Positions 14,471-52,301 of a stretch of DNA of 64,000 nucleotides are shown in pieces. The notes beneath the pieces are model-generated. The model was given only the letters and a program-made list of their open reading frames with translations. It made no database searches and was not told where the DNA came from. Both the position numbers and the translations under genes were made by a program. The stretch comes from Tubulanus polymorphus (taxonomy: Eukaryota; Animalia; Nemertea): positions 21,734,150 through 21,798,149 of the forward strand of contig NC_134026.1 in assembly GCF_964204645.1 (NCBI RefSeq), read 5' to 3'. How positions within the stretch are numbered: the first letter of the stretch is position 1; every line of letters starts with the position of its first letter.

Positions 14471-14582
<112 letters not shown>

Positions 14583-15037: not shown

Positions 15038-16301
15038 AAACTAGGGGTCCAGGGACACCATGCCCACTTGGGAAGTGGTTTCAAATGCTCAACAATCTAA
15101 CAATTTCAATATTCAACGCCCCCTGGTGACCATTTACAAAAACCAACGACCTTGAAACTCACCAAAATCATAGAACATGTCAGCAGCTACGATTTTGTAG
15201 ATTGTGATAACAAAATATGCCTCGTTACCAATTTAATATGGAAATACTAAGTCATTCTACTATTCAACGCCCCCTGGTGACCATATTCAAAACCCAATGA
15301 CCTCGAAACTCACCACAATCATAGAACATTTCATGAACTTCAACTTTGCAATTGATCATGGTAACAAAATATGCCTAGGTACCAATATAATAAGGAAATA
15401 CTAAGTTATTCTACTATTCAACGCCCCCTGGTGACCATATAGAAAAACTAATGTCCTTAAAACTCGCAACAATCATAGATGATGTCATGAGCTACAACTT
15501 TCCAATTGATTGTGGTTACAAAATATGCATAGGTACGAATATAATAAAGAAATGCGAAGATATTGTATTATTCAACGCCCCCTGGTGGCCATATACGAAA
15601 TCCAATTACCTTGAAACTCACCACAATCATAGAACACGTTATGAGCTACAACTTTCTAATTGATTGTGGTAGCAAAATACGGTTAGGTGTCAATATAATG
15701 TGGAAAAACTTTTTCCCACTTATGAATGAGTACTGGTGACACAAAGATGGCCGCCAATTGCGTCATAATTGGCTGATGAAATACCTGTCTCAGGTATAAA
15801 ACATCCCTTTCCAAAGAATACCCATCACAAATTGCAATGAGAAAGGGCAAACCAGTAGGAAGCTACAGGACTCAGAATTCGGGCCAAAATTTACATTTTT
15901 GGGCACTAAAAAGGTCATAAGACGGCCATCTTGAGTCCGACCGACCCAATTTTTGTTATGTTGATGGGCCCTGGGGGATTCACATATATCCGAAAGATCA
16001 AGGTAATTGATCAAAGCGTCTTCAAAATTTCCCTTAAAAAGTTCAAAAATGTGTAAAAAGTGCTGATTTTGGCAACAACAATGGCTGCTAGTCGGCCATC
16101 TTGATTCTGACAGGGCCAGTTTTTGGGCTGAAGATGTGTCTAGGGTAGATACATGTGTAACCCAAATATCAAGACGTTACCTTGAAGCGTCTTCAAAACT
16201 TCCCAAAATAACTGGATTCCGTCTACGGACGGACGGACGGACGACAGACGAAAAGTGAATGCAATAGCCCGCTGGGACTAAAGTCCCAAGTGGGCTAAAA
16301 A
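15038..16301 (-). mobile_element. Non-autonomous Helentron-associated element (HINE/DINE-1/pearl-like) with central tandem array
   Basis: On the minus strand it starts TTTTTAGCCCACTTGGGA. The subterminal IR GCCCACTTGGGA lies at 15062-15073 and its reverse complement at 16284-16295. There is a terminal hairpin TGGGACT-AA-AGTCCCA, an (ACGG)n microsatellite at about 16225-16245, a central array of ~154-bp units, and a 3' short palindrome followed by CTAGTTT. Confidence 0.75.
15110..15700. repeat. About 4 tandem copies of a 151-154 bp unit inside the HINE
   Basis: ATTCAACGCCCCCTGGTG recurs at 15111, 15262, 15416 and 15570. Confidence 0.93.
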
Positions 16302-20800: not shown

Positions 20801-23083
20801 GATTGCAATAAGGTCAATACAGCCATTCCACTAAGTTTTGATTCGAGGGTTAAAATATTGAAAATCGAACTGATTTCAACTGTTGATTAGTTTCAAACTA
20901 TTAAACAAGAGAACTATAAAACTTCTTCCTTATATGGACGTCAAATAGTTATTTCGTCTTAGTTGATTATTTCATTCTAGTTAAGTTTGGAGAGTGAAAG
21001 ACATGTTTGTATGCATCACAGGGGCCTTGCTCAACATGCCCGTATGGAAACAACATTGTCGTTTCAAATGAAAACAGAAACAGAAGATTAATATTTTTTC
21101 TCTATTTACCCGCTATGTGCAAGGATACTGGTGCACAGTAGTCTAGTACCTACTAGTCTACTGTATACTATAAAATATACTAACAAGAAAACTGAATATG
21201 TGAGGTTTGTAATGAGAGTTAATTTTTCACAATCGGATTAGTGGAACTGGATTTCTAGTGGTTTTAAGTCACAGTGAGTGATTGAAAAGTATTGAGAAAA
21301 TGTTGTTCGTGTCTGTGGTACATCAGACACTAAAAGGTACTTGGTGAAGTTGAAATAGACATCAGTGTTACATACAAGGGAAGGAGTTAGTCTGAATACC
21401 AGTCGTTGTTACCGGTTCCCTACAACGTCTGACGCGAAAGTATCATATAGAGGTTAACTCCTGTTAATAGCAATGCAACAACTGATTTTAGTGTCAAATC
21501 AAACCTTTGTACTAAAATAAATAAATTAGTTACCTTGTTGACTTAGAAAATGTGTTTTATAATAATATTTTTGATGATTTAAATCGCGAACCGGAGAATT
21601 TATTGATTTGATTTGAAATGAATTGATTGCCACAATCGGGATTTCGAATACGGACTAAATTAATAAAATGTGAAAATTCAATATGTCTCTCTAAAATTAC
21701 TCTAAATGTAATTTCTTGTTCATAAAACGCATTAATTTAGGTCAATTTTAACCTTAAGAATTTGAAACAAGAATAATATCTGCATTGGCATCAATGTCAG
21801 TCCAAGTTCAAGTCCGAATCCGTAATTTACACTCCCATCATGCACCCACGAAAAGCCGCCCTATTTGCTATGTTGCTTCACTTCAACTATTTTTTGAGGC
21901 GACTAGTCAAAAGTTTTGAGCTACTACGATCGTCAAAAGCTACTTAGGATTACAAATATATGCACAAGCAATAGTTAACTTCCATCTGATTACAGAACAG
22001 TCAGTTTGAGGTAATTGATGGTGTTTTGAGTGGTGAAATAGACGCTCAAAGCCTCGGACGAAAATTAACCTTATATGAGCACTTTCGTTTGGGGAACAAC
22101 GGTTAGGTACTAGACTAGGGAAGGAATGTGTTTGCCTTTGGATCATGCCCGGTTAAATTACCTTTTTTTATTAGCAGTAGTCGGACCGCATATATAAGTA
22201 AGGCAGTGGATATATTACCGTATCCAGCCGAGTATTTTTTTCCGCTATTTTACCGTTCATCGTCGCTGATTGGCTGATTTACGCCGCGCATGCGCACAGA
22301 GGTGCGCGACTTAGAAAATTCAAGGAAAGTGTGGAGAACAGAGTTATAGAGAAAATAGAGCGGATTGAGCGAGACTCCAACCCGGGCCAGTAAATAACTA
22401 GTGCAGCGTCATACCACACCGAGCTCGCTGAAAACCACCCGAATGCTTTAACTATCTATAGTACCCCACCTTACCCTAATCCTATCCCTAGGGGTAAAAA
22501 GGAACCCTCTGGACCCTCTCGACACTAACCCTATCGAAACCCGAACCCTAAACCCAATATACTGATTTTATTGTTACTTATATTAGTTAATACTATATAT
22601 ATATATATATATAGTAATAATGTACGGTAAAATAGCAGAAGTAAATACTTTGCCGTATACCAAGTATACGGTTAGTTAAATATCCACTCCGTTTAAGTAA
22701 TCTAAATCTTTGTTGGGAAATGAATGAAACAAGTCACCTGACAAGAATGAAAAATTTTTTGAAATCAAAAACAAGACTAAGTAAAAGGGAGGCCCAAGGC
22801 AGCGCACCATCAGAAAAAGAAGGGCCCGGCTCTGGGTAGGGAGCAACATAATAGTTGAGGTGAGTATTTGAACCCGAGTATTTAATTAAAAGGGCACTTG
22901 GCGCAGTGCCATCCATCATTAATTACAAAGCTACCGATTATCATGGCTTCGATATAGTTTTACGCAAATATAAACAAGTATTCAAAACACAGTTGAATAT
23001 GGTAGAATACTAATATTTATACCTGCTATGGCCATTTTTATGTCTCCCATCGAGACACTGTGTTCGGAGTGGTCTTCCGCCAT
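17811..23083 (-). CDS. Spliced DEK_C + SWIB/MDM2-domain protein (UAF30/Spp27/TRI1-like)
   Basis: GT-AG exons join in frame. Exon 23023-23083 gives MAEDHSEHSVSMGDIKMAIA, exon 20702-20792 gives DILQGADLNELSSKTVRKQLEERFNADLSDR and exon 20192-20285 gives KKEIDKCLMDMIDE (DEK_C). Lys/acidic linker exons lie at about 18.6-20.0 kb. SWIB exons read YSKPCRLSPALSEVVG / MPRSDVVKFMWNLVKERNLK / RKRLRTFGMMKFLKNHIFDDK*. Internal exon limits are approximate. Confidence 0.88.
22206..22689. mobile_element. Degenerate non-autonomous element with imperfect terminal inverted repeats (intron 1 of the SWIB gene)
   Basis: AGTGGATAT...CCGTAT...AGTATTT...GCTATTTTACCGT at the left end is mirrored at 22620-22689. Internally there is a tRNA-like A/B-box remnant and TAACCC-like repeats. 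Confidence 0.45.
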
Positions 23084-23242: not shown

Positions 23243-23460
23243 GGAAAATTCGCTATTTTTTATTATATTGTTATATTATTATTTGATAGAATAGTTTTCA
23301 AATGTTCGCGCCAACCTTATTAAATTAGGCCGAAAGATCAACGTCTAAATTCGTACGGTATCTTGATACAATATTTTAGACGTTGATCTTTCGGCCTAAT
23401 TTAATAAGGTTGGCGCGAACATTTGAAAACTATTCTATCAAATAAACATAGCAAATTTCC
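23243..23460. repeat. Long inverted repeat / hairpin (MITE-like)
   Basis: Perfect arms of about 71 bp (about 23279-23349 and 23375-23445) flank a spacer of about 25 nt. Imperfect pairing extends to 23243 and 23460. Confidence 0.92.
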
Positions 23461-24596: not shown

Positions 24597-27500
24597 ATGA
24601 AAATGATGATGATGAGTTTCGTAGCCTTACAAATATCATTATACACAATAATCGCTTTGAATTCGAAAAGAACTGATGCCGCTTTTGAGATTCCCAATTT
24701 GGACGATAAACACTTTGAAGTTGACGGAGATTTAGTTTTGGGCGTTTTATCGTGGATCCATTACAGCGACGAGAGAAACGGATGCTCCGAGAAAGCGTTT
24801 TTACCAACGGGAATCGCGTGGACTGAAATGTTTAAATTTGTCGTAAATGAAATAAACAATAATGCCACGATTTTACCAAATATAACGCTGGGATTGGACA
24901 TCTACGATGAATGTATGAGTACCCGAATCGCTGCCGGTCGAGCAATGCAACTACTGCACCGAGCTGGAACATTTCAGGATACCGCTTCAAATTTTATGTC
25001 ACGAAAGCACCTCGTCGGGGTTATTGGGGGTGTTTTTTCGTCAACGGCTGTCGCCATATCCAGGATCTTCACTCCGTTTGAACTACCGCAGTTAAGTATG
25101 TCGGCGACTTCGGCCGAACTCGATTCTCGATTTTATTTCCCGTATTTTCTACGCTTACCGCCGTCAGATGCCGCACAGACGATCGTCATCGTAGATCTCA
25201 TTCGATATTTTGGTTGGAAATATTTTGCAATTCTCTATCGCGACGACAGTTACGGAATCAACGCCATGCAGATGATCGTGCATCTTACGCGAAAATTACC
25301 GGCCGTTTGTGTCGCTTATAGTAAAGCAATAAGCGACGACAACATCGCAGAAGACACGAGGACGATTGTAAAACAATTAATCAAAGACGGAAGAGTCCGA
25401 GTCGTCGTTACATTTCTATATTCGACGGCCGCATCTGGTTTATTAAGAGCTGTTAATGACATAACAAAGACGAACTATTTCACTTTTATATTTAGCGATT
25501 CAATCGAACCGGCAGCGTTGGATGCCTTTGGAAATTCGCTCGGCGCATTACGTATAGGCGTAGAGTTTCAGTTTAAAGCCGAAGATTATTTCTTTGACAT
25601 CTACGAGAAATACACATACAAAAATCTGTCGACGAATAATCCTTGGAAACACCTGTATATGGAGCGAATTTTTAACTGCACGTGGGTACCATCAAAATTA
25701 TCAATGTGTCAGCAATTCGTGGACACACCGTTTATCAAAAGTCTAATGGGACGGTCGGTGTTCTTTACTTACAGTAGGGCACATGATACAGTTTTGACTT
25801 ACGCAATGGCCTTACATAAACTGATTGAAACGAAATGTCCAGATCTTTTTTCACATTTCAATAAAACGCTAGCAAAAATGTGCGTCACGACTAAACATTT
25901 GTTACCGTACCTATACAATGTTTCATTCGACGGCAAAACAGGTCACATTTTCTTTAATGATATAGGTAACGGAATGAAGCCTTATAACATAGACCAATGG
26001 CAGTTTACTGAAGGAAAATTTAAACTGGTTGAAATCGGAAATTATGACCTATCCACCAAAATGGTATCAATCAACAAACGCTTGGTAATGTGGTATAATT
26101 ACACGCGAAAAGGAACTGGTGGAAAGTTTTTGGTGATTCCCTCGAAAACACCGAAGTCGACGTGCAGCGACCCGTGCAAGCCAATCGAATACGTTCAAAC
26201 ATTGGAGTCAAAATGCTGCTGGGAATGCAATAGATGCCGGAACAACGAATACATCGACATGCACATCACGAAAGGAAACCCGTGCATAGCATGTCCGCTG
26301 TACATGTGGCCCAACCCTGATGACTCCAGGAGCTGCAGAAAACTATCTCCGCAATATCTAAACGTGGAGCACCCGATTGGAATCGGTTTGTGCTTCGCGG
26401 CTGTTGTTGGTATGATAATAACTTGTCTGGTGACAGGTATCTTGGTCAAATACCGCCGAAACCGACTGGTGAAAGCGTGCAGCCTGGCACTTAGTGTATG
26501 CACTTTAATGGGAATTCTCTCTAGTTTTCTGGTGGTGTGTTTACTGATGATAAGACCGGAACGATTTGTATGTTGGCTGCATCGGTTCGGTTTTGCCATC
26601 TCGTACACGGTCGTTTATACCCCTCTTCTGGTAAAGAGTACGCGCATGTATCGCATCTTTTGGGCTGGTAAACGCGGTATCTCGAAACTGAAATATATCA
26701 GCAACTTGTCACAAATGATCGTCACATCTATTGTATTAATACTGCAAGTAAGTAATCTCCACAATGCGCATTCTAGTTCAAATAGAATTAGCTAAGTTTT
26801 ATATAGAATGATTTCTAAAGCGAGACACTTTTGAATTACCAGGAAAAGGTTTAGATATCTTAAGCAATAATTGTGATTTGCGTGTAATTCAATAGGACTT
26901 CGAGGTATGAGTAATTGGAAAAGTAGGCTTTCAGATCAGAGGTCGAGAGGTCGAGACACCACTCATCACCACAAGTAATTTTTTTTCCTAATAAATGGGG
27001 GAGAATGAACACCAACCAGAAAACAATAATGTTAATGAAAATCAATATTATTGCCAATATTGTAAAAAATACATCGATAAATCCCAAAAATCACGACATG
27101 AAAAAACTGCAAATCATATAAAAAATGTAATAGATTTTGAAACACTAGATAATACAAATGAAAGAAAAGAACGATTAGATGATATGAATGTGGATGAAAT
27201 AAAATGTGAAGTTTGTGATGAATTTATAACAAAAAGGAATTATAATAGACATCTCGAAACAGCAAAACACCATCAAAATTTGAGTAATTATGTTTTAGGA
27301 AAAGATTATTTTGATGATAAACCTCAAAAAGTAAAAAAAAACAACTTCAAAAACTAAATCCATTTCAAATAAACCTTACATGGAAAATGTTAGAAATTAT
27401 ATTGATTCACTAGAAATAAAAGATACAATTGAAATTTTAGAAACATTACATAGTAAAATTGGTCCTGCAGCTATTATATTTAGATTTTTCAAAGGTACAA

Positions 27501-30500
27501 CAATAGAAGATTATAGTACATTTAATGAAATAATAGAAAAAATACTAGATTTGATAACAGATGTTGAATATCCAAAAATTAGTATCTCTGGGAAAGTAAG
27601 TTTTATGAAGTCAGAAGAAAAAATGGATTATAATATTCAAACACTCTCTGAAGAAATAATTTCAAAAACGCAAATAAAAGAGAAGTTAGAAAAAATATTT
27701 AATGAATTTAAACGTCATATTGAAGAAAGATATTTTGAGGGTTCTGGCTTAACATTGAATGAAATTATATATTTAGATTTAAATGTTTATAATACAAAAA
27801 GAAATAAAACATCAAAAAGTAATAAAATGTTTAAAAATGATTCAAACTTTACAACAGAAAAGGATATTAAAGCATCATCTTATATTAAATTACCATTTAC
27901 AACAAAAGCAGTAATAAATATTCAAAATGAAGATAATAAATGTTTTCTATGGTCAATTATTAGTTGCTTACATCCAACACAGGAAAATGTTTGTAGAATA
28001 ACATATTACCGGAAATATGAAACATTATATAAAATTGATCAATATCCAATAACTGTAAAAATGATTCCTAAAATAGAAATAGTTAATAATTTAAAAATAA
28101 ATGTATTCGAATTAATGCAATTACCAAAGACAAAAGGTGAAAATATTAAAGATTATACATTGGAAGCTTTATATTTAACAGAATATTATGATGATGAAAA
28201 TGCTATAGATTTGTTATATTATAAAAAAGATGAAAATGAACATTATATGTCGTTAAAACAAATTGATTTATTCTTTAGAACAGAAAGTGATCACCATAAT
28301 AAAATTTATCTATGTAGAAAATGTTTATCTAAATTTATGACTGAGAATACATTATTAAAACATAAAGAATTATGTGATAATAAAGATTTTTGTAAATTAA
28401 TAATGCCAACAGAAAAAGATTATAAATTGAAATTTACTAATCATAAATTTAAGAATATTGTTCCATTTGTAATTTATGGGGATTTTGAATCGTTGAATAA
28501 AGAATTAACTGATCAAGATAGAAAAGAAATATATAACAAAAAGCAATTATTAAAATCAATGGATAAAGGAAATGAATTAAATGAAGACACAATACAAGAC
28601 CCACCAATTCTAAATACAATCAAAAAAGTTCATCAAAGAGCTGCTGCTTATGGAATTTATATAAAATCAAATTATCCTGAATTATATGAAAGTCAATATA
28701 TTTCTTTTAGAGGTGAAGATGTAGTTAATGATTTTTGTAACAAAATGATTGAATTAGAAAGTGATTTTGCAAAATTATTAAACAAAAATGAAAGAATAGT
28801 TATGACAAAAGAAGATGAAATTGATTTTAATTATGCAACTCATTGTTGTTATTGTGAAAAACGTTTTTATTCATTTGATAAAAAAGTTAGAGATCATGAT
28901 CATTTAAATTCAAAATATCGTGGAGCTGCTCATGAAGATTGTAATTTACAAGCTAAAAAAGTAAATTTCGTTCCAATATTATTTCATAATTTATCAGGCT
29001 ATGATACCCATCTATTTATAAAACAATTATCGGGAAAATTGGGTGCATTTAATCAAGAAATAGAAGAATATAATGCTATGAATGATGTAAATGTAAGAAA
29101 ATATGATTTTAAACTATTAGCTAAAACATCTGAAAATTATATTTCATTTCAATTTGGTTGCATTAGATTTTTAGATTCTTATAGATTTCAAGTTCATTAG
29201 ACAATTTATCAAAAAGTTTAGTTGATAATGATTTTATAATAACTCGATATTATTATCAAAATGAACAAGATTTTAAATTATTGAGATATAAAGGTGCAAT
29301 TCCTTATTCATTTTATAAAACACACAATGATTTTAATGTAACAGAATTATTAAAAGATCAATTTTATGATCAATCAAAAGAGGAGTATGTGAAAGATGAA
29401 GTGTTTAATAGAACATTAAATATTTGGAACCATTTTAAGATGAAAAATCATGGTGAATTAGTTGATTTATATTTAAAATCAGATGTTATGATATTGGCTG
29501 ACATATTTGAAAAATTTAGAGAAGTTAATTTGAATCATTTTAATGTTGATCCTTGTTATTGCTACTCTAGTCCTGGTTTACCCTGGCAATGTGGTTTAAA
29601 ATATACAAATGTAGAATTAGATTTATTAAAAGAACCAGACATGGTTTTATTATTTGAAAAATCAATTAGAGGTGGAATTAGTGGTGTTATGGGAGATTGG
29701 TATTTTAAAGCAAATGATGAATATAAATTATTATATATTGACGCCAATAATTTATATGGGCAATGATGCAACCTCAACCACATAAAAATTTTATATTAAC
29801 AGAAGTTGAAAATGATGATAAAACTGATTGGGAAAGCGCAATTATGAGTTTAAAAGATGAAGCACCAATTGGTTATTTCTTTGTAGTTGATTTAGAATAT
29901 CCTGAAAATATAAAGTTTAAAACAAGAAACTTACCTTATTGCCCAGAACATTTAACTGTAGATGATAGTTATTTAAGTGAATACCAGAAGAAAATAAAAC
30001 CGAAAGATCATGTTTTACAGAAAAATTAATACTTACTCAAAATAATAAATACAATTATATCGTTCATTATAGAATGTTAAAATTTTATCTAAAACAAGGA
30101 ATGAAATTAAAGAAAGTACATAGATATATTGAATTTAATCAATCGAAGTGGTTAGAAAAATATTCTAATTTAACATCCATTTAACTGTGGATTTCCATTA
30201 ATAGCCAAAAATACGGACAGTTACATACTAAAAATCAAGACAAATGACATAACAAAAGACTTAAAAACATTAAAACATCATTTTGATTTTAGCAATTATC
30301 CCAAAGATCACGAACTATTTAGTAATGATAATAAAAAGATTCCTGGTAAATTTAAAGATGAATTAGGGGGTGATGAAATGATTGAAATTGTTGGGATAAG
30401 AAGTAAAATGTATAGTTATAGAACAAAAGATCATGAAGCTAAAAAGTTAAAAGGAATAACAAAACATGTGGTTGATAAACATATAGAATTTCAAGATTAT

Positions 30501-33500
30501 ATAAAGTGTTTATATAAATCAATTGTAATGAAACATAAAATGAATTGTTTAAAATCAGAAGATCATGAGATGTACATTAATGAAGTTGAAAAAACTAGTT
30601 TGAATCCATTTGATGATAAAAGGCATATTTCAGATGATGGTATAAAAACATTACCTTATGGCCATTAATCATTAATATTTCTATGAAATTGTTTCATTAT
30701 GAATAAATCATTATCTTCTGAATCATTAACTTCTGAATCATCATCTTCTAATTCTTCATCTTCTAAAAGTTCTATATTTTGTTCATTAATACATTCAATT
30801 AAATATCTATAACTTTCAATCATTAGATGTTCTTCATTTTCATCTGATTGTTTTTCTATAATTTCTTCAGGTTCTTCCATTTCATTTTTCTCATTTAAAT
30901 AACGTGTTATATTGTTCCACATTTCATCTCGCTCTCTTTGTTTCTTTTTGTTTGTTAATTCATCAAATTGAATTATAATATCTATGTTTAAATAATTTAC
31001 AATCTAATTTAAAAAGAATTCATAATTAATTGAATCTGTTATTCTATTTTCCAAATGATACATTAATATTTGTTTGAATATTTTTTTTATATTTTCCATA
31101 TCTTCTTCTGTTAATTTAGGTTTTTCATAATAACCATTAAATAATAAATATAAATACATTTTCTTTTGTTTTGTGTTAAATGTTGATGGAATAATTGTTT
31201 TTATAATATCTTTTTTAGTTATTTCACCATTTTTATTTTCTATCATTTTCATTTTTTCAAGCCATTGCATATATTCTGGTGTATGATCTTCTATAGAAAA
31301 TATTTTAAAAATTTCATCTAGATAATTTAATTTTGGTTCTATGAGAAAATCTCTAGTTTTTTCTTCACCCCATAAATTCCTTAGCTATTCACAATCAACA
31401 CAAAATTGCACAGGACCTTCTTGTCTTAAGGTCGCATAATAACATTGTGGGCATTTTTGTTTATAATTTCTTGGTAATAGATCTTCATTAAGCTCTTGGT
31501 ATTTACTTACGTTTTCTTTATGTTTTATTGTTCTATTATGTAGATTTGAATTACTTGCTGTAATAATCAATTTACAATATTTACAATAATATGTTTTTCT
31601 TGTTAATTCATTATATTGTTTTTCTAACTTTTCAACTGTTTCTTTATTATCTGGTCACGTTTTCTCATATTTCATTTTTTCTAATATTTTATTTTTTCTT
31701 TCATTGAATTCTTCTTCAAATTTATTAGAAATTTTATCCATATGTGCTTTACGAAATTGATGTTTCTCCCAATCTTCTATATTTTCAGGTCTATATTTTA
31801 TTCGACATTGCTCACAGAGATAATCTTTTATATTATCCTTATCATAGAATAAGAAAGGTCTTTTCCAAATAACTTCAGATTCAACTTCAACAGAATTACT
31901 ATTACTTTCATTACTATCAACATTAGCCGTTGCGCCATTAATTTTACACTTCTCTGAATGTTTTTTAACATAATTTCTTGAGAATAATTTATTACATTTT
32001 GGGCAGTTTAGTTTAGGGGGTTTATAATTTTCTTCATGTTTTTTCATATGTCGAGCCATATTACTTTTTCTTAGAAGTTCACCACTAATTTCACATGCTA
32101 TCTTCTCATCCATTTATTAGGGAAAAAAATTACTTGTGGTGATGAGTGGTAATTTTTTTTATGTTATAAATAATGGTAGAATTAAAAGAATACAGAATAT
32201 TTGTTGATTCTAGAAGACTTACAAATTATAAATCACATAATTTACTAGTTCAATTAGATAGAGAATTTAAGAATTGTGTTGATTTGAAATTAGTAGATAT
32301 AAGTTTATGTAACTCATTTTACAATATATCAGATAAAACTGATGAACATAGAAGCCTTTTTATTTTTGATAAACTTGGTAGTAAAATGTTTCAACTTATG
32401 ATTACACCAGGATTATATAATTTAGAAACATTAGCGCAAGAAATTAATAGAAAAGCTCGGATTGGATTAGGTAATGGTGATTCTAAATTTAATATTAAAT
32501 TCATAAAAAGTGAGAGCTCTAATAAAATTAAAGTAAAGTTTGATGATGAAAATATTAATCATAATGAAGAAGTGAATATTGCTTCATTTTCAAGAAGACA
32601 TGCTTACATGGTAAAAAAAAACCTTTTGCTAAACTGTTAGGAATTCCTCCAGATAAGCTTATTGTTGGAAACATATACGGTATATCAAATTTAATACCTT
32701 TTACACATTTTTATATTTATTGCAATTTAATTGATCCTACAAAAACATTTGAAGCAACTAAAAATATAACTTGTAATTCTAGTATACTAAATATTTTACC
32801 ATTAAAAATGTTAAACAATTTGGAACGCAAATAAATTATAATTTAGCTGAATGTGATTTTAAACCTTGTATTCCACATATCAATAATTTTAAATTAGAAA
32901 TAAGAAATCATAATGGTTATTCAATTGATTTGAATAACATTCCTGTGATATATGAATTAGTTATAAGATGTAGAGAGTAATTTTTTTATTATATAAATGA
33001 ATATAACTGTTGGACCGAGTATATGTTTTGGATTTGATTTTAAACGTGAGAAAGAAATGAAATTTAACATTAATGATGTAATTACACATATCAAAAATAT
33101 TGCATTTTCTAATGAAACAACATTTGAGTATGAAACAACAATAGATAAAGAAACTTTAAATGTAGAAAAGATTACTAATTTAATTAGAGAATCTTTAAGA
33201 TTTTATGAATTAGATGACGATTTTATCATTATTTCTAAAATGGAAAATACATTTAATACATATGAAGTTACTTTTACTCGAGATGAATATAATATATATA
33301 AAGTAAAATCTAATATGAAATATTGGCAGAATCAATTAAATTTTGCTGTTCATTGTGCAACAACTGGTTGTGGTGTAAGTTGGCATGAACACTTGAAAAA
33401 TTTGAAATATTCTGATTTAAAATTCATTCATACAATATTTAGATTTCACACATATTTTCAAATCAGAATAATATTAAATGAATTAGAATGCCCTTTACCT

Positions 33501-36500
33501 GGATCGAAATATTTTAAAGAATTGGATAATAATATTAATCTATCTATGTTTTATAATATGTAATGAATTTAATATAAATATTAATTCCGATTTTAGAGCG
33601 CATGGTAGATTACATGGTGTTGGTGAACAGTATGAAATAAAAAGAATTGATTATCTGCATAGAATTGGAGCTTATCATAATTATAGAATTGATAATAATA
33701 ATGGATGGATTAATTTTATTGAATCTTATAGTGAAGGATTTACAAAACCTGGTATACAAAGAATAAATCAATCAATTAGAACTTATTTGATATGTATTTT
33801 AGGTGCGCAAGTTGAAACAAGATCACCAATAGTTGGAAATAATAGTACTTCATTTGATGCGCAGAAACAATTTAAAATATTATTTGAAGATTCCATTCAT
33901 AATGATAAAAATAGATCGATTCCAGAAAACATTGTAAGATATCAAAATTATTTAGATAAATCTCATGTAAGACTAAATTATTGTATAGGTCCTAATCTAT
34001 TAATTATTTCTAATGATTTAGTATTAAAGATGGGAAATATAATTGGTTATAATAATCTAATTAAAACTGCAACAATAAATAATTCAATTGGATTAAATGA
34101 TATAAATAAAAAGATTATTACTACTCCAAAATTAATGGAAGGTGAAAAAAATATTCAATCAACAGAAACTAAAACTAAAAATATTAAATTGCATAATGAT
34201 TCTAAAATAAAAGATTACAATACATCAGAAAATATAAAAACTGATAATATTCAACATGATATAATTAAAACTGATAATGATAATAAATTCCATGAAAATA
34301 CTAAATTAGCTTTAACTTGTATAGGAATTGTTATAGGAGGAATATTATATTTTAAATTTTAATTTTTTTATTATATAAATGGATGTAGAAGGTGGAGAAG
34401 ATATTGGAATGGATAATTTTGATGAGCCTGGCATAACTGAAGAACAACAACCTGATTTTAGTGAAACAAGTTTTAATGATGGTAATGAGCCAGAATATAA
34501 TAATAATTTAAATATGCCTGATTATATTAAAAATGCAGAATCACAATTAAATCCTGAAAATTTAGACCCAGATTTAGTAAAACAAGATTTAGATAATTTA
34601 AACACAATACCTAAATTAAAACATATAATTGAAAATTCTGAATTTAACATAAATGATGAAGACGTTGGACCTTTAGCATATAAATTAAAATTTTTAGATA
34701 ATGGTAAATGGTATTATCATTTGAAAGGTGATTATTATATTGATATCACTTATAAAAATCAAAACAAAATATTAGCAGAATCAACTTTAGAAAAATTAGA
34801 ACCAGGTAGAATTAAAAGAATTAGTAATAGTAATGGTAATGTAATAACTGATGTTATAAAACAAGAATTAACTGTTAATGATATAGACGTGTTTAAACAA
34901 AGAATTAATGAGTTATTTGACAAAATCAAAAAGAACTCAGAAACAGATACAACTTCTGAACAGAATAAACTTCCAAAACTAGTAAACTTAAATCAAATAA
35001 AGTTCTAATTGAAAAACTTTTACCGAATGGATTAAATGATGCAACAGATCAAGAATTAGAAGATTTAAATAATATATTTTCTGTTGAAGCAATTATAGAA
35101 ATTAAAAGTATAAGACTTGCATCTGATAAAATTGCGCATGATAAAAGTATAAGAGATTTTAAAATTAGAACTTTAGAAAAAGAATTAACTGATAAAAATA
35201 AAGAAATAGAACAATTAAAGTCTGATTTAGATCATCAAGTAATTGATGAAATAGAATATAGGCAAAAAAAATTACGTTTAGAAAAAGAAAAAGATGATTT
35301 AGAATATAACATAGAATTACAAAAAGAAGTAATTAAATTATTATTAAAATCATATGATTATAATATTAATAGATTAAAAGTTATTTTTAAAGATTTATTT
35401 ATAAAACCAAATTCTGAAATATCATTGAAAGATAGAATAAAGTTATTATTTAAATTAGAAGGAATAACAATTCTTTCAATTCTAACAGCTGTAACTATGT
35501 TATTTACAACAATTGGTTTAGCAATATCAAATTCTTTGAAATCTACTCCTACTCCCAATAAACCGGATAAACCCCCGAATGATAATAATTCTATACAAGA
35601 TAAAGTTAAGGATGGTTTAAAGAAATTAGCAAAATATTTATGGGAACTATCTAAAAAATCTGCTGCAGCTTTACCAGGAATTATTGCATCAATTGTTGGT
35701 TTTATATTGAAATCTGCTTGGAATATTCTTAACTTTGCTGCTGAACATATTATTTTATTTTTAATTACAGTTGTAAGTGCTATCATTTTTGGGTTAGTGA
35801 ATATGATATCAAAAAGATATCAAGAAAAAATAATAAAAAATAAATAATTAATTTTTTTGTTAAATAAATGAGTGGGAGTTATATAAGTCCTTCTAAGATT
35901 TCTAGAATATCTAAGGCTATTAAAGCAGAAAGATCACATCATATAATTACACATAATCCTTCAAATATTAATCCCAATGAAACTTTATATGTTAGAATTC
36001 CTAGATTAACACAAAATACTTTTTATGTTCCAAATAGTATTTATTTATCAGCTGATATAAAAGTAACTGGTCATGATAATAATTATGTTGTTGATAATGT
36101 TGGGAGATATTTGATTAAAAAATTAACTATAAAGATTGGTCCAGAAACAGTTTTCTCATTAGATGATTATAATTTATTTATGCATTATAAAGATTTATGG
36201 TTAACTAAAGAAAATAGAAAAAATATGATATTTCAAGACATTCAATCGGAAAACCATAATAAATTAAGATCAGGAGCTAATGACGCAATAGTAACTCGTA
36301 CCGCAGATAATTTGATAAAAAAGATTTATGGAAGTAAATATCAAATTCCATTAGATTTTGAATTGATAAGTAATAATGCACCTTTATATAAATATGTAAT
36401 TCAAGAAGATATTATGTTTGAAATAACATTTGCTCCTGTAAATGAAATTGTATTGTCTAGAAATTGTATTTGTTAAAGACATGGGTTATAAATTATCGAA

Positions 36501-39500
36501 TATATGTTTAGAATATGACACAATAACTAATGAAAATATTGCTAGCACAATTCAAACTCAATACAATCAAGGATTTTCATTATTATATGATTATATTGAT
36601 AAATTTAAAACTGTAACTATTAATGCAAATGATGAAATAATGAGAATATTAACTTCCCAAGAAGATCTATTAAAGGTATATTAATATTTTTACTATTGCA
36701 ACATATTCTAATGGTGTAATAAAAGTAGATAATTATTATAATCCTGAAATAACAAAAGTAGAAATAACTATCGAAGGTATAGCAAATAAAATATTTTGTC
36801 AGGGAATGAGAATGATAGATCAGTGGCCAGAAATAAGAAAACATTTTATGAATGAAAAAGTAAAATCATTTGAAAATTGTAATATTAATCAAATTGATTA
36901 TTATACCGGCATGCATTATGGTTAGATTTTAGAACAACAGAGGATAATTCATTACATGGTTCTGGAAAAAAATTACAAAACACTAAAGATGGAATACAAT
37001 TATTCATGACAAAGAAAAAAGGAAGCCTAAATTTCAAAATGCATATTTATATTATATCTGACGCACAATTAAATATTGTAAATTCACAATTAGATAGTAT
37101 TCAATATAAATAATACTTTTAAATGGATTGATGTTTTACCAAAATTGATAGAAGGATATAATAATTCTTATCATTCTTCTATTGGAATGAAACCTACTGA
37201 TGCTAGAAAACCTGAAAATGCTGAAATTGTTTGGAATAATTTATATGGAGCATTTCTTGTCGATGATTTTGGTGAACCTAAATTTAAAGTTGGTCAAAAT
37301 GTTAGAATTTCTAAGTATAAAAAGATATTTGACAAGGGATACGATCGAAATTTTACTAGGGAAATATATAAAATAAAAAAGGTAATAACAACAAAACCAT
37401 ATGTCTATAAATTAGAAGATTTAGATGGTGAAGAAGTTGATGGGTATTTTTATGAAGAAGAATTGAGTTTAACTACTGAAAATCTAGAACAAGAATATAA
37501 AATTGAAAAAGTATTAAAAACAAAAACTATTAAAAGAAAAAAATATTCTTTAGTAAAATGGGTTGGATGGCCAGATAAATTCAATGAATGGATATTATCA
37601 AGTAAAATTAAAAATATATGAATGAATAAGGAATTATTTATATTTGAGCCTCATAATATGTTAATTTCTGGTGTAACAAATTGTGGAAAAACTTATTTTA
37701 TGTTAAATTTATTAGAGACTTTTTATAAAAACTATTTTGATAATATAGTATTATTTTGTCCAACATATGAATTTAATCAAACTTATGATAGAAATATTAC
37801 TAGAAATAGTAAATTTATTACATTAGATCCTAAAACAGTAAAAGAAAATTTAGATAATTGTATTAAAATAGCAATAGATATTTATAAAGGATCAAATACA
37901 TTATTCATTATAGATGATTGCGCAAATTTACATGATTCAAAAGTGAGAGAAAGTGAGTTATGTTACTTAGCTTTTTCTGGGAGACATTTTGGGATAACAA
38001 CTTGGGTTTTAAATCAAAAATATAATTCAATTGTTAAAGATTTTAGAGAAAACATTAGATTTTTAGTTTTATTCTACAATAAAGATAGAAAATCGATGAA
38101 AAATGCACTTGAGGAAAATGATATTATTCCACATGATTTACATAATGAATATATGGATAAGTTGAAAAATATTAAAAGATCAAAATTACTATTTAGATTA
38201 CAACACCCATTTAGATATGAATTTATTTAAATTCAACTGGCTTGTTAATCTAGTATATTTTTAGTTACATTCTAGTTGAATTCTAGTTATTAGTAGTTGG
38301 AACAAAAATCAACTAGATTTAACAATATTTCAACTAGCTTGTTAATCTAGTTTAATTCTAGTTACATTCTAGTTGAATTCTAGTTGTAAGTAGTTGGAAC
38401 AAAAATCAACTAGATTTAACAAGAAATAAACAAAAACAACAATATTTCAACTAGCTTGTTAATCTAGTTGAATTCTAGTTACATTCTAGTTGAATTCTGG
38501 TTGCAACAACAAAACTAACTTATTTGTTATATAAATGGTAGGTGAAAAGAAAATAAAATCTAAAAATGGTGATGTTCCAATTGAAAAAACTTTAGATGAT
38601 TTAGGAATAACAGAAACAAAATTAACTCCAGATGATGGTGCTTTGAATAATGTAACAACAAATAATAATTATGAATATTATCTTTATTGTAAACATCAAT
38701 TAGAAATATTAATAGCATCTGGAAAATGTAAAAATTTTATTGGTAAAAATTTAACTTATAATGAATTAGATACAATGAAATCAGATGAAATTATTAGATT
38801 ATTTAAGATTTATGAAACCGCGAGAACAGCTAGAATTAATGACGCGATATCAGAAAATGTAGTGAAAGGTTATAGTAAATTATGTAATTATATGCTGCCA
38901 ATTCAAGATGAAAATAGATTATATGCTGATTTAGAAAATGATTATTTAGTTATGACTGAATTAAATAAATGGATTGGAGATTTATCATTTCAATTAGGTG
39001 GATTTATGACATTATTATCAACTGGAATTATAACATTTTCAAATATTGAAAGTAAAAATATTTCTATAATAAATGAACAAGGTGGAAGAAGTGAAGAAAA
39101 ATCCGAGATCACAGAAACAAAATGAATGGTCTCGACAATTAGGAATTAAATCACAAGAATTTAAAAAAGCTAAAAAAGAAGGAATAAATAATGAAAATTT
39201 TAATAATAGTGAAAATATTGTTAGTTCTACTCCTTCTGGTAATAGAATATTTGATAAATATTTATATTTTACAGTTGGATTTGTAATTGTATTCATTTTG
39301 ATTGGGTGTAATTGGTATAAGAAATCAAATAAAATTCATGATATTAATAATTCTGAAACAACTGCTATCAAAAATGAAAATAAATCTGAAATTCCAAAAT
39401 TGACAATAAAAAAATGGATTAATATTTTAGAAAAAAAGCAAAAAAAATCATGTTTTTAATCAATTGAATATTAATTGAATATCTCACTACTTTTGTTAAT

Positions 39501-42500
39501 CTATACGGAGCAATTAAATTGTCCAGATAAGTCATTTCGGATTCTAGATATTCATTATTTTTATTAATTTATTTTTTTAAATTTAATCAACAATTTCTAA
39601 ATCATGATGGCCATCTTCATTTTTTCCATGATAGATTATTTTAATCCTTCTAAATCTTTTAATTCCTCTATACTCAATGAAACCCATTTATCAGGTAAAA
39701 ATACTTTAAATTCTCGCGATGTACTAACATTGCAGTAGCTTAAATTAGCTGATACTTTCTCTCCATATTTAGTTTTTATCTTTTCTAATTTCAATATTTT
39801 ATGTTCAATTTCTTTTGTAACATCAACTAACTTTTTTATTTCAAATTGTTTTTTTTGTTGGTTTTATTCTGTTATTTATTGTTGCTAAGAATCTCCCATT
39901 TATAAGGAAAACAAATTATTTGTGGTGATGAGTGGGGATTACTTCCCCTTGTATAAACAAGCACGCTATTAACCGTTCTCACCCAAGCCTCACGGCATCT
40001 ATTTATCGGGGCACAGTCGAAGTTTTAAGAAATTTGGGGAATTATGAGATTTGGCGATTGGGTAGATGATACAGTCTTCGACTGGTCTAATTTAAAAAAA
40101 ATTGTCAACTTGTGACCGACTTCGATTCACTTTTGCCTCTAAGCTGGTCTGCAACTTCATTGCCTCCATGGTTGAAGAAAGAGCTCTTCTGATGTCTGCT
40201 TCATCATGAGCATATCGTGTAGCCAGCCGGCCCGGTCCCGGGGCCCGGTTTGGCTGTCACTCGATATCCTAGACTTGAGTCTGGGTTGAAGTAGACATTG
40301 TCATTTAAATAACTTATTCATGTTATTCTGTATGAATTACCCGTGTGTCTTGTATTTTGTATTTTCTTAGTTTAAAATTTGTAACTTTATTGAATTTTAT
40401 CCCGGAATTTCAATGAAATAAGGATCAATAAAGTATTGAATTGAATTGTCACCTTATACACATGCCATCAGTGGACGCGGAGCCGTATATGACAGCTATG
40501 CTATTATAAATTGCTAATCTCATGAAACCTGCATACCCCTAATATCGAACATATTTTCTAAAACATTTGAATATTATATGTTTACACGTTTTTATATAGA
40601 CCGCTTGTAGCCGCCGATGAAATTCACACCGGCCCTACTCAGATCGTAGATAGCTTCGTCATTCCACTAGCATCCCCATGACAGGGTCTGACTTTTATAT
40701 CAGACTTCCAAATCGTGTATACATCCGCCATTTAACCGAATAATCCGATTTACTTATCATTTCTTTTTATGCCTGCCGCTCCTGATATAATCATACATCA
40801 TTTACTATTACAATACGTCTTCTCATGATATTCAATGCAATATAACATTCCGACGTTCAAATGGAGGTCATTATATAATCACAGGGAGCCATTCTACATC
40901 TTTATCAATAATATTTTGCCAAATAGCTTGTATGTGTACACATAAACCTGTGACGTTTTGCACATCGATTTACGGTTGTCGTTTGTAAAATGACGCTGAA
41001 TGGTTAGCATTGTTAAGGTTTCATAATGGTAACGTTTTATAAGGCGTCAAAAAAATTACTTGTGGTGATGAGTGGTGTCTCGACCTCTCGACCTCTGATC
41101 TGAAAGCCTACTTTTCCAATTACTGGTATGATTATGTTATATAAGTATGTACATTATCACTTATGACAGATAAGCGTAAATTACTGTTTCATTTAATACG
41201 CTTACAGTGTACTCTCACTAATCAGACTCATCAATTTGTAGTGGATTATGCCATTTATAAGAGTTGTGTACCCTCTACAATCCACCCAGGATCCCCCTGC
41301 CAAAATGTTTTTTGATAGTGTGAGGGACATTGTGATCGAATGTATCTTATTTTGATTATTGACTGAATTTCTTCAGTTTTTAATCAAGTTTTTCCTTTGG
41401 TATATGTTAATCCAACCGATCCATCATTTCACAAACCTTGGATAACTCCTTGTATTGTCACAGCAATTAAAACAAAAAACAGCCTCTATAGGAAACTTGT
41501 TCGAACTCGTTCTGATAAAATAAAAACCAAGTATAATTCGTACCAAAATCTCATTTAAAAGCTTATTAACAAAGCTGAATCTGATTATTATTCTGAAAAG
41601 TTACTTGCTGCTGGAAATGATATGAAGAAAAAGTGGAATCTGTTGAACACAATTTTAGGGAAACACTCATTCAAAACTACCAAACTCCTTTACCTCCGAT
41701 CAACGTATAGCACCCTGACATTTCCGCCTTGCAAGTATAGCACCCTGAGATTTCCGCCTCGCAAGCCCAGGGTAACTACGTAAAAAATCCTTAAGTCGAC
41801 GATCAGGAAGCAACGACGAGAAAGCGTTCTTAAAACTTCAAACTCAAACTTAACTTAAATTTCACTTTATTTTCTTGGATATATCGGAGAGACGAGGCTG
41901 GACATCCAACCCGCTCAAAAGCTACAACTCGAATCTCTGATTTCTTTCAACAAATTTTCCACCAGGATACTATTACATAAGACACCAAGGGTGGCAGAGA
42001 CCAGAAGGCAGTTATCAAAACAATACAAACTGACTGACACTTCAAGTACATTTCTAAAACAAACAAACAGTCCGACACTCCAAAACTGATTGCCATCCTG
42101 CCCCCTTAGTAACATCGATGAAAATAAGACAATATTTGTAAAATAAGAAATAGAATTCATAACTTGACCTAAAAATGCTCTGTTAATTTAGACTAAATTT
42201 AGTTAAATATCTACGGTGTTATATTCTCCCATTGCATCTCCTTCAACTTTTGCATGTAATGCAAAAGTTGAGTACATTATGTAAAAATACATTCTTATTG
42301 GTATATCATTATAAACTGATGATTAATAGAATATGTATAAAATGCTCTGGGTTTGCAATTTAACTTATTTGAGTTACAATTAGAATACAATGAACAAACA
42401 CATTTACGTTGTTTGAGGAAATTAACTATGGTAGAAGCAGTAAAGATGTATTTCATAATATGATATATATGATTTTGCTTTCTAGATTATTCCTTAAAAA

Positions 42501-47731: not shown

Positions 47732-49368
47732 ATCGCACGTACGACCTAGGTGTGCGAAATTGAACTGACTCCCGTGGCTATGGTGGCTGATTCAGCCCAT
47801 AATTGAAAATACAGATCTATGCAAATCTATATGAACCTCTGTATACGGCTAAAGACATGATAAACGATTTTTTACATTTTGGTTTTCTCTCGCGAGCATT
47901 CGAAAAGTCGGTTTTTTTCGCACGAGAAAACAAAAGATTGGCCAATGCAATGTAAAAGATTTCTTATCTAGCTTCAGCCGTTTAGAAAAATTGTTCAAAC
48001 CAAAGCGTTTTGTATTTTTGTGCGATAGAACAAAAAGTTTGGAAAGCAAAAGGTGGGTCAATGTAAACATTTGTTATCGTGCCTCTATAGCTGTACAGAA
48101 CAATTTCCTAGTAAGGCCCAAATCAGCCACCATACGCAAGAGCACACTGAAAACCAACGAACTATCATTTGGTATAGATGATAACTCGATTTTATTTTAG
48201 AATCTATTTGTTGGTAAACTCATGGTCTTAGGCCTACACTATCACAATACAAATGCAGTTAATATATTGTAAAACGTACCCAAAGATCGATGTAAATGTT
48301 TATGCAATTGCATTTGTCAGTGATAATTTTGAAATTACCGCCTCGTAGATGGAGGGGACATCGAATAATGTGTGTACAGAACTTTAATATTGGACATATT
48401 GTTTCAAATGACCTTATAAAAATGAAACCGTAAAAACGAGTTTGCTATCTTCGTTGTTTGTCTCCTCTTCATTATATGCTGATGCCGTTTTGTGACGTAG
48501 TCTTATGGAGTTCATATGTACATGTATAACAGTAATATTTGTAACTTGATATTAGTAACTTGAATGCGCTTAGATGTAATGTTCGTATGAAATAATAACT
48601 AATAAATGTACTTACTGGATGTTTCAGTTTTGCAATGTATCGAACAGTGGACATCATTGATGATTTAAATATGTGTTGTGTTTGTAGCGTAAATCAGCAT
48701 TTTGTGATGTATCTTTTGAATAAAGTATGAATATGGTGATGCATGAACAGGTAAGTTTATCGTACCTTTTTTGGAGCGCGCATTTCCATTACTATGGCAA
48801 CGAATCGTGTAGTATCATAGAAAATAGTCAATGCCGACAATTAAACAAAATTATTTAAATCGTGCCTGTTTTTTAGAATTAATCTATCCAATGGAAATCA
48901 TGGGCAACGTTGGAAATCTAGCCGCATGTGGAGACCGGATCATCCACCAAGGATAATTACTCGAGACCATATGGTGCCCGTGGAGAACAAGCAACAGAAC
49001 CGGACGCATGTACAAATGCAGTTTAAGGAGAAAAGGGTGATGATTTTGTTGACCGGGGGGGGGGGGGGGCTAATCGGGATGTTGATTTTGCTATTTGCAT
49101 TATTCCATCGTAGATACTTAAATCCCGCACCCAAGCTTAAAACAAATATACAATCAATTTTGATTAAGCAATGGAATGCCAGTAGAGACAATCTAACCAC
49201 CGCGTATAGAATTTATTACTTTGACGACTTATTTTCACTGCTGAAAGCGCATTACCGCTGCAAAGCGAGCTGTTATTACGCACATCATTTCAGATAAAGC
49301 GATGACAACGTATTGTCGATTTGAATTTTCTTCTTTACCACAAATTTTCTACCGACTTCTTGAAAATC

Positions 49369-52301
49369 ATGACGAGCTTCGTAGCCTTAGAAATATCATT
49401 ATTTACGATATTGATATTGTATCATCCAGACAGGTCCGGTGCCGTTTTGAAGATTCCCGATTTGGACGATAAACACTTTGAAGTTGACGGAGATTTAGTT
49501 TTGGGCGTTTTATCGTGGATCCATTACAGCGACGAGAGAAACGGATGTTCCGAGAAAGCATTTTTAGCAACGGGAATCGCGTGGACTGAAATGTTTAAAT
49601 TTGTCGTAAATGAAATAAACAATAATGCCACGATTTTACCAAATATAACACTGGGATTGGACATCTACGATGAATGTATGAGTACTCGAATCGCTGCCGG
49701 TCGAGCAATGCAACTACTGCACCGAGCTGGAACATTTCAGGATACCGCTTCAAATTTTACGTCACAAAAGCACCTCGTCGGTGTTATTGGGGGCATTGTG
49801 TCGTCAACGGCTGTCGCTATATCCAGGATCTTCACTCCGTTTGAACTACCGCAGTTAAGTATGTCGGCGACATCGGCCGAACTCGATTCTCGATTTCATT
49901 TCCCGTATTTTCTACGCTTACCGCCGTCAGATGCCGCACAGACGATCGTCATCGTAGATCTCATTCGATATTTTGGTTGGAAATATTTTGCAATTCTCTA
50001 TCGCGACGACAGTTACGGAATCAACGCCATGCAGATGATCATGCGTCTAACCCGAAAATTACCGGATGTTTGTATCGCTTACAGTAAAGCAATAAGCGAC
50101 GACAACATCGCAGAAGACACGAGGACGATTGTAAAACACTTAATCAAAGACGGAAGAGTCCGAGTCGTCGTAACATTTCTATATTCGGCGGCCGCATCTG
50201 GTTTATTAAGAGCCGTTAATGACATAACGCGCACGAACTATTTCACTTTCATATTTAGCGATTCAATCGTCCCGTTGGGCACCTATGAAAATGCAATAGG
50301 TGCATTGAGTATAGAGGTAGAATTCGACTCTAAAGGCGAAGATCATTTCTTTGACATCTACGAAAAATACACTTACAAAAATCTGTCGGCGAATAATCCT
50401 TGGAAACACCAGTATATGGAGCGTATGTTTAACTGTACGTGGGTACCGTCAAAATTATCTAAGTGTCATCAATTCGTGGATACGCCGTTTAGCGAAAGCC
50501 TGATACGAAGAAGGTCGGGATTCTTTACTTACAGTATGGCACATGATACAGTTTTGACTTACGCAACGGCCTTACATAAACTGATTGAAACGAAATGTCC
50601 AGATCTTTTTTCACATTTCAATAAAACGCTCGCAAAAATGTGCATTACGACTAAACATCTGTTACCGTACCTATACACTGTTTCATTCGACGGCAAAACC
50701 GGTCACATTGACTTTGATAAGAATGGTAACGGAATGTCCCCGTATCAAATAAATCAATGGCAGTTTACTGATGGAAAATTTAATATGCGTACAATCGGCA
50801 ATTATGACCAGTTCACCAAAAAAGTGTCCTTTAACAATAACTTGGTAATGTGGTATAATTACACGCGAAAAGGAACTGGCGGAAAATTTTTGGTGATCCC
50901 CTCGAAAATACAGAAGTCGACGTGCAGCGACCCGTGCAAGCCCACCGAATACGTTCAAACATTGGAGTCAAAATGCTGCTGGGAATGCAATAGATGCCGG
51001 AACAACGAATACATCGACGCGAACATCACAAAAGGAAACCCGTGCATAGCATGTCCGCTGTACATGTGGCCCAACCCTGATGACTCCAGGAGCTGCCGAA
51101 AACTCTCTTCGCAGTTTTTAGACATCGAGCACCCGATTGGAATCGGTTTATGCTTCGCTGCACTTATTGGTATGATACTAACTTGTCTGGTGACAGGTAT
51201 CTTGGTCAAATACCGCCGCAATCGACTGGTGAAAGCGTGCAGCCTGGAACTTAGTATTTTCATTTTAGTGGGAATTCTTTCCTGTTTTCTGGTGGTGTGT
51301 TTACTGATGATGAAACCGGAACGATTTGTATGTTGGCTACAGCGTTTCGGTTTTGCCATCCCGTACACAGTCGTTTATACCCCTCTTCTGTTAAAGAGTA
51401 CGCGCATGTATCGCATCTTTTGGGCTGGTAAACGCGGTATCTCGAAACTGAAATATATCAGCAACTTGTCACAAATTATCACCACATCCGTTGTATTAAT
51501 TCTGCAAGTAAGTAGTCTCCATTTTGAGTCCGTAAAAAACATTCCAGTTTCTGTCTAATGTGTTAAGTTTTATATAGAATAATTTTATAAGGCGATTTGA
51601 AAATCTTGAATTACCAAGTTAGATATTTCACGTGATAATTGCGATTTGTGAATAATTCCATTTGATTTCGAGTTACGATTATCATGTATATCCTTATGTG
51701 TAACTGTGCAATATCACTTGACACATAAGCATAAATTGAGCGTCATGAGATGCCACATCCACTTCTAAACATATTTCACAGTTCTTCTTTGACGTTTTCT
51801 GTCTTTCAGGGAATGCTTGTATTGATATCGGCATTAGTTTACCCGCCAGTTCCACGGTTTATCATGCCATTGCTGACGACACCGTATGTTGAACTGATTT
51901 GCGACCTGCCTGTTCCAGCGCTTGTCATACCGCTTTCATTCAACATCCTCATCATTTTCGTCACGGCCGTGCTCGGATTCCTCACAAGGGCGTTACCGGA
52001 TAACTTCAACGAATCGCGTTATATATTTCTGTCAGTGAGCGCTACATTTTTTTTATGGGTCGCTTTTTTGCCGACGTACTTTTCGGCATCAACCGCGGCC
52101 CACAAGGTTATGCTGTTAGCGCTTTCCCTTATTCTAAGTTCTCTTGTCATATTAATATGTATTTTCATTTCTCGTTTGTATGGTTTGTTTTGCATTGACG
52201 GAGATGCGATGACATTTCTGACCATAAATGCTTCATCTGTGGGACAGGCCACCACCTCTAGAAACATTCAAGTCAGTTCGATTTCGCAATTAGAAGTATA
52301 A
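49369..52301 (+). CDS. Class C GPCR paralogue 2; exons 49369-51507 and 51810-52301
   Basis: Same architecture as paralogue 1, with a 302-bp GT-AG intron. The first ATG is at 49369; the ORF-track start at 49321 is TTG. Confidence 0.94.

Follow-up and report, generated by a model that had tools for sequence, protein, structure and literature searches.

The question of how the genes of a Polinton in an animal genome are transcribed, and whether a helper virus is needed for this, is raised by a stretch of 64,000 nucleotides of Tubulanus polymorphus (contig NC_134026.1, positions 21,734,150 to 21,798,149, hereafter the window). The window contains a decayed Polinton/Maverick of 14.2 kb and 23% GC that is multicopy in this species, and a 16-mer of its terminal inverted repeat (TIR), hereafter the box, recurs inside the element. 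Four exact copies are present, at 26959-26974 (+ strand), 32134-32149 (-), 39920-39935 (-) and 41060-41075 (-), with no further match in the window at up to 3 mismatches; the mean expected by chance is 0.31, and a count of 4 was reached in none of 100 shuffles. The ATGs at 26995, 32113 and 39899 lie exactly 20 nt past copies 1, 2 and 3, respectively, and copy 4, in the right TIR, is followed by a T-run and TATAAAA without an ATG. An earlier interpretation of this DNA, made without database searches (the sequence-only reading), had reported the four occurrences and the 20-bp spacing before three ATGs, and both are confirmed here. Copies 1 and 4 sit within 76-bp TIRs that are 100% identical; because of this identity copy 4 is not independent, and three independent copies remain.

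The reading preferred here, with a probability of about 45%, is that the 16-mer would be the upstream element of a two-tier promoter, in which a TAAATG core serves most genes and the box is added for the polymerase gene, a small SSB-like gene and a gene encoding zinc fingers (ZnF) and a VLTF3-like domain. TAAATG is found at 8 of the 10 gene starts of the window element. Its occurrence elsewhere has been determined in related loci obtained by an ATPase-alignment scan (23 loci, 41-80% identity), 22 of which were used for the start counts after locus L030, a near-duplicate of L029, was dropped. Among open reading frames (ORFs) of at least 100 amino acids in these 22 loci, 65 of 85 begin with TAA-ATG, compared with 178 of the 2876 ATGs overall (6%) and 17 of 254 short ORFs; of the 13 host-side ORFs none does so. 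The ATPase genes of the relatives show it in 16 of 20 cases, three loci without a usable start being excluded. Upstream of the 65 TAAATG starts, T is found in 53, 42 and 47 sequences at -12, -13 and -14, and A peaks at -16 to -18. In the vaccinia study (PMC11980589), late promoters carry TAAAT(G) over the start codon and T about 10 nt upstream; both features are found in the element and its relatives, and the shared core matches the vaccinia late promoter in sequence. Mere stop-start coupling was rejected as the origin of TAAATG, as an in-frame upstream ORF is closed by the TAA in only 1 of the 65 cases. Thirteen of the 65 starts are arranged head-to-head, some of them 5-7 nt apart. Integrase and ATPase genes starting head-to-head at 5-7 nt, on a palindromic overlap of two TAAATG, were observed at L037:1429-1434, L038:1019-1024 and L035:1587-1594.

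The unit repeated in the window element is longer than the 16-mer and comprises the box, a T-run, CC and TAAATG (48 nt at 94%, 57 nt at 82% identity). The CC spacer is common to the box modules only. Box 2 lies in a 59-bp divergent promoter, oriented toward the ZnF-VLTF3 gene and, in reversed orientation, 23 nt before a penton-like gene. The 24 matches to the 16-mer in IMG/VR were set aside as chance, since TAAATG follows within 30 nt in none of them.

A box precedes the starts of the polymerase, SSB-like and VLTF3-like genes (3 of 3) and none of the other starts (0 of 7; Fisher p=0.008), so that it likely marks a separately controlled class of replication and regulation genes, made up of the polymerase, a predicted SSB and a predicted VLTF3. 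The sequence-only reading had placed the box only upstream of non-structural genes, and these counts agree with it in part: of the seven starts that lack a box, four belong to genes without assigned function, which makes the label 'structural' partly an assumption, and the integrase start is deleted in the window copy, so that this non-structural gene was left out of the scoring. The absence of the box from the capsid, ATPase and membrane genes in their own orientation holds, with the reversed box 2 next to the penton-like gene kept in mind. The small gene scores 0.85 with a phi29 SSB cluster, a weak lead for its label; translation from ATG 39899 meets a stop at codon 5 owing to a frameshift close to the gene start, and the two internal genes with a box are 7-8 residues shorter at the N-terminus than their orthologs in L025, the closest long relative. 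Two expression classes, as proposed before, are plausible on these grounds and because sister copies have box 3 and often lack box 2 before the penton-like gene; what that proposal overlooked is the TAAATG core shared by both classes and the VLTF3 domain.

The gene behind box 2 (30665-32113, - strand), previously described as a multi-ZnF gene, forms a single 482-codon frame when its three in-frame stops are read as X, with four fingers, a zinc ribbon, a VLTF3/A2-like domain and an acidic tail. It is predicted to be a zinc-finger fusion to a divergent VLTF3-like domain, VLTF3 being the A2-like late transcription factor of poxviruses. Similarity of the C-terminal half to a 292-amino-acid protein of relative L047 was found (E 1e-7), and the ESM Atlas places that protein among Pox_VLTF3 clusters (27 of 30 matches, score 0.95). 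A profile built from two sequences retrieved 11 proteins, one of which, reached at E 7e-5, carries PF04947 at E 1e-24 plus the A2L ribbon, and two of the profile matches, P0125 (41% over 403 amino acids) and P0129, are full ZnF-VLTF3 fusions. P0125 begins almost as the ZnF gene of L025 does, and the L025 gene is therefore considered the ZnF-VLTF3 ortholog. The model of the window domain, with a predicted local distance difference test score (pLDDT) of 54.5, retrieved cowpox and entomopoxvirus VLTF3 first (TM 0.50, probability 1.0, E 0.04-0.13). No direct VLTF3 match to the gene was obtained in Pfam, and none with the VLTF3-like region in a word-based protein search, and a PDB fold search was likewise without result; the single-sequence fold of the L047 protein (pLDDT 41.9) was too low to use. 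A TFIIB identity is not claimed, as the PDB sequence search gave only the TFIIB zinc ribbon at E 0.16.

The sequence-only reading saw in the box a possible operator for the element's own zinc-finger proteins. The fingers of this gene are few and partly of U1/JAZ type, with one finger pair separated by a 10-residue linker and no TGEKP linkers. The finger code predicts a 6-mer that is found in the box, but also in 3008 of 20000 shuffles (15%), and is a lead at most. Co-variation of this code with a C-rich patch of L025 was rejected as evidence, since 14 of 15 upstream regions fit the L025 pattern. In L025 the ZnF-VLTF3 ortholog shares its divergent promoter with a deoxynucleoside kinase gene (L025:10340-10981, dNK E 2e-31).

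The sequence-only reading had put forward conservation of the box in sister elements as a check, which has been carried out within the species with about 12% of one whole-genome sequencing run of the same species label (45,398 reads on 25500-39500). Summed read depth was 16-23 on the flank, 117-757 inside the element and 1057 in the terminal bin, and tens of diverged copies are therefore present in the species. In 334 reads the box is preceded by the same sequence as box 3 of the window, and 374 reads run from it into the small gene, so that box 3 is family-wide within the species and the check gave a positive answer at this level. The penton-like start is reached from other sequence by 344 reads with no box 2 in front; many copies thus have this gene but no box 2, and the box is associated with the ZnF-VLTF3 gene. 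The same data contain a second terminus type (636 reads), in which the TIR is shared only from 26929 inward, the outer 19 bp being different and the box-bearing inner part kept. Mixed flanks in 680 reads indicate many insertion sites, and single contigs of run X1 join 32660 and 35798 to the terminus (26910) or to the box (26974), as in nested or rearranged copies.

Outside the species the check failed. None of the 23 related loci contains the 16-mer; their best match has 4 mismatches, and few of them include a box-class gene start. A 22-letter box pattern gave 0 metagenome matches; no relatives of the element were found in viral contig or genome contig collections. In L025 the ZnF-VLTF3 ortholog is preceded by a C-rich island flanked by A- and T-runs and the SSB-like gene by a weaker one, and these windows rank first and second for C content among 15 upstream regions. 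Other private words precede other gene sets in L044/L045, L047 and L029. A palindromic box of the TTCGTC...GACGAA type stands before several genes and in arrays in L044 (3244-4527) and L045 (2187-4635, 9308-11092), and L029 has two arrays of three 24-mers, at 1553-1671 and 4920-5038, one directly upstream of a 408-amino-acid zinc-finger gene and one inside an HNH gene. A word repeated in L028 was not considered further, since coding repeats account for two of the three copies.

According to the two-tier reading, the core would be old and conserved and would be read by an RNA polymerase of poxvirus type that a helper virus provides; the helper is deduced from the fact that the element encodes no RNA polymerase (no subunit was found among the 26 translated pieces of the window). 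The box would be young and lineage-specific: a cassette reaching from the box to the start codon was likely pasted from the TIR, with its register preserved, onto two of the internal genes and then retained. The ZnF-VLTF3 fusion of the element itself would bind the box and tune three promoters, including its own, and the right-TIR copy would be a by-product of TIR identity, an origin role being unnecessary. A co-evolving reader encoded by the element would be fitting, because the box turns over fast beside a conserved core. In a wider form of this proposal, which we regard as rather doubtful, the animal Polinton lineage would be a virophage of a poxvirus-type virus, with the ZnF/VLTF3 adaptor binding a private, fast-evolving box and steering the helper RNA polymerase to the genes for the polymerase, the SSB and the adaptor itself; box and fingers would co-vary from one lineage to the next.

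Several results weigh against the two-tier reading. The failure to find the box outside the species is among them, and the L025 patch has no significant similarity to the box, a score as high being reached by 1414 of 5000 shuffles. The box is not significantly better conserved than its spacer (variable columns 0 of 16 vs 4 of 20, p=0.08). The module is in tandem duplication in 70 reads and thus copies readily, and in a few contigs (5 in X2 and 3 in X3, one sample) the match ends within the box, which speaks against function. The palindromic box of L044/L045 precedes the integrase and genes without assigned function. Concerning the reader protein, the VLTF3 fold model is weak (pLDDT 54.5, best E 0.04) and the VLTF3 of L047 has no N-terminal fingers; the binding of the box by this protein and the helper virus are both presumed. 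Moreover, in vaccinia (PMC11980589) A2L, the capsid gene D13L and the ATPase gene A32L are all intermediate and the polymerase and SSB are early, so that expression of VLTF3 before the capsid is not the poxvirus order.

Part of these results would be expected if the cassette had spread neutrally, the TIR promoter with its start codon being copied onto two internal genes by recombination or gene conversion and the box being inert, a serious rival although on balance an unlikely one. The tandem modules, the contigs that leave inside the box and the lack of conservation beyond the species fit it, together with the similarity that extends from the box past the ATG, the CC spacer restricted to box modules, the shortened starts of the internal box genes relative to L025 and the much shuffled gene order of the relatives. 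However, both pastes are in register on non-structural genes and none is found on the seven other starts, box 3 is family-wide, and in L025 the orthologs of both internal box genes have C-rich patches before them. It is improbable, in our judgement, that a host transcription factor binds the box for nuclear expression of the polymerase, SSB and VLTF3 genes, with VLTF3 then directing host RNA polymerase II to the TAAATG cores without any helper. The box does contain ACCACA, which we take to be a Runt-domain site, and the lack of an RNA polymerase subunit among the 26 pieces would be accounted for, yet a conserved host factor would keep its site and ACCACA is absent from the L025 patch. Mriyaviruses, thought to replicate in the nucleus, keep VLTF2/3 without an RNA polymerase (PMC11253617), and the genes of a coral polintovirus are expressed and cluster by function (PMC11131425); nevertheless, head-to-head genes 5-7 nt apart at overlapping TAAATG would fit a poxvirus-type initiator better than RNA polymerase II promoters.

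A coupling of replication to transcription, in which the box would be an auxiliary origin or a site for terminal protein or polymerase doubling as an operator, seems very improbable. The box is 50-65 bp from both termini and the polymerase unit has N-terminal fingers, and the adenovirus inverted terminal repeats, which hold host-factor sites, offer an analogy; but a promoter located in a TIR will in any case be present at both termini, and the inner TIR recombines with the different outer 19 bp of the second terminus type in 636 reads. The link of the box to the terminal origin drawn by the sequence-only reading was thus not borne out, nothing having been found in this analysis that connects the box to a replication origin.

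The identity of the element follows from a DNA polymerase B of the protein-primed type (pPolB), an rve integrase, a major capsid protein, an A32-like ATPase and TIRs flanked by a 6-bp target-site duplication (TSD), the TSD length of Maverick/Polintons being 6 bp. An adenovirus-type cysteine protease, expected of Group 1 Maverick-Polintons, was not matched among 26 window pieces or 22 proteins mostly from relatives. The left TSD, GGTATG (26904-26909), is repeated at 41125-41130. The left TIR (26910-26985, +) begins with AG and contains, in its inner part, a short direct repeat, then box 1 (26959-26974), which precedes the polymerase unit by 20 nt, and the first part of the T-run; the direct repeat (26935-26958) has AGGTCG twice, 2 nt apart, and resembles a nuclear-receptor DR2 site. 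The T-run and TAAATG core (26975-26997, +) would form a poxvirus late-type initiator overlapping the start codon of the polymerase unit (26995-30668, +). This unit has two N-terminal U1-type fingers (zf-U1, E 3e-9) and several broken frames, with fragments at 27335-30668 and one piece matching DNA_pol_B_2 (PF03175) at E 5e-5, below the curated cutoff; it is probably a single gene.

After the ZnF-VLTF3 gene and box 2 (32134-32149, -), the penton (minor capsid)-like gene is found in three pieces (32173-32980, +). Its identity comes from its position and a likeness to minor capsid protein that we assume; the piece gave no family above cutoff and no homologs in a word-based protein search. It is followed on the + strand by genes that start with TAAATG and have no box: a conserved gene without assigned function (32997-34362, two pieces, a single 442-amino-acid ORF in L025), a coiled-coil/hydrophobic-tail protein (34379-35847, two pieces) and the major capsid protein (35868-37113, four pieces, Capsid_N at E 8e-4, below cutoff). 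The C-terminal part of the rve integrase, with a chromodomain (37094-37621, +), is 79% identical to an L025 ORF that matches rve at E 1.5e-10, and about 0.8 kb of 5' region present in L025 is deleted here. The A32-like packaging ATPase (37622-38230, +; Pox_A32 E 5e-13) is intact and has no box. Three 97-nt palindrome-rich repeats follow (38232-38542), and repeat arrays of unrelated sequence occur after the ATPase or before the 196-amino-acid gene in four elements (window 38232-38542, L025:9096-9412, L028:17-214, L029:3551-3643), being a candidate internal origin or enhancer. Two conserved genes without assigned function, of 196 and 128 amino acids, lie at 38535-39459 (+), both with TAAATG and no box.

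The small SSB-like gene (39636-39899, -) is frameshifted, with a short 3' tail in another frame, and is 69% identical to its L025 ortholog; box 3 (39920-39935, -) stands 20 nt before its start. A 1.1-kb segment of host-like composition (39936-41048; GC 38% and observed/expected CpG 1.06, vs 23% and 0.43 in the core) contains no ORF over 65 amino acids and no RNA family, with one sub-threshold match in Rfam, and its first 30 bases are shared by sister copies in the reads. The right TIR with box 4 (41049-41124, -) closes the element, which lies in an apparent intron of a class C G-protein-coupled receptor gene (ANF_receptor, NCD3G, 7tm_3), about 160 bp past an apparent splice donor (26795-26910). 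Two paralogs of this gene are located at about 49100-51700 and 54600-57050, and long palindromes and a 151-154-bp tandem repeat are present on the host side at 14471-14581, 15110-15710, 22587-22620 and 23279-23445.

Taken together, the core, the VLTF3-like factor and the class-specific box make animal Polinton transcription directly testable and, if the reading is true, virophage-like elements that run a transcription cascade of their own would exist in animals. The window element resembles Maverick/Polintons (Polintoviricetes, 'adintoviruses'; PMC8502044, 10.64898/2026.06.19.733378) in its pPolB, rve-chromodomain integrase, capsid genes, A32 ATPase, TIRs, 6-bp TSD, size of about 14 kb and multicopy presence in an animal; it differs in that no adenain-type protease was found in it. 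VLTF3 has already been reported in a polintovirus subgroup (PMC11131425), and the word 'promoter' is absent from the main text of these three works. TAAATG promoters or class-specific boxes in animal Polintons were not found in the literature searched, which comprised neither supplements nor subscription papers, so that a prior mention may exist.

The likeness to the vaccinia late/intermediate promoters and A2L (PMC11980589) lies in a TAAAT(G) that spans the start, T residues some 10 nt upstream, more distal A/T-rich sequence and an A2-like factor with a zinc ribbon. Unlike vaccinia, the element carries the core also on the polymerase and SSB-like genes, which are early there, has the factor fused to extra fingers, lacks an RNA polymerase and adds a GC-richer 16-mer. 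The linear yeast plasmids pGKL (PMC6211774) have two-part promoters, in which a conserved sequence lying 20-40 nt upstream of the start codon is combined with a TAAAN initiator; they differ in encoding their own RNA polymerase, in having the upstream sequence before every gene and in the sequence itself. Entomopoxvirus-associated polinton-like viruses (PLVs; PMC11296320) are likewise small integrative viruses, tied to invertebrate poxviruses, but they carry a tyrosine recombinase and a primase-helicase in place of rve and pPolB, and the main text describing them has no promoter analysis. In endogenous mavirus-like elements (mavirus-type EMALEs; PMC8547959) and in the virophage PgVV (PgVV/Gezel-14T; 10.1101/2022.07.28.501842), the genes of a small integrating virus share the promoter motif of a large virus, and in PgVV the motif is on a gene subset that includes the polymerase. 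These have protist hosts, Mimiviridae-type motifs and a known helper, whereas the window element has an animal host, a poxvirus-type motif, a presumed helper and a private subset motif. Borrowed promoters are therefore already known in protist virophages and PLVs, and it is the poxvirus-type core of an animal Polinton, together with a class-specific box, that may be new in print.

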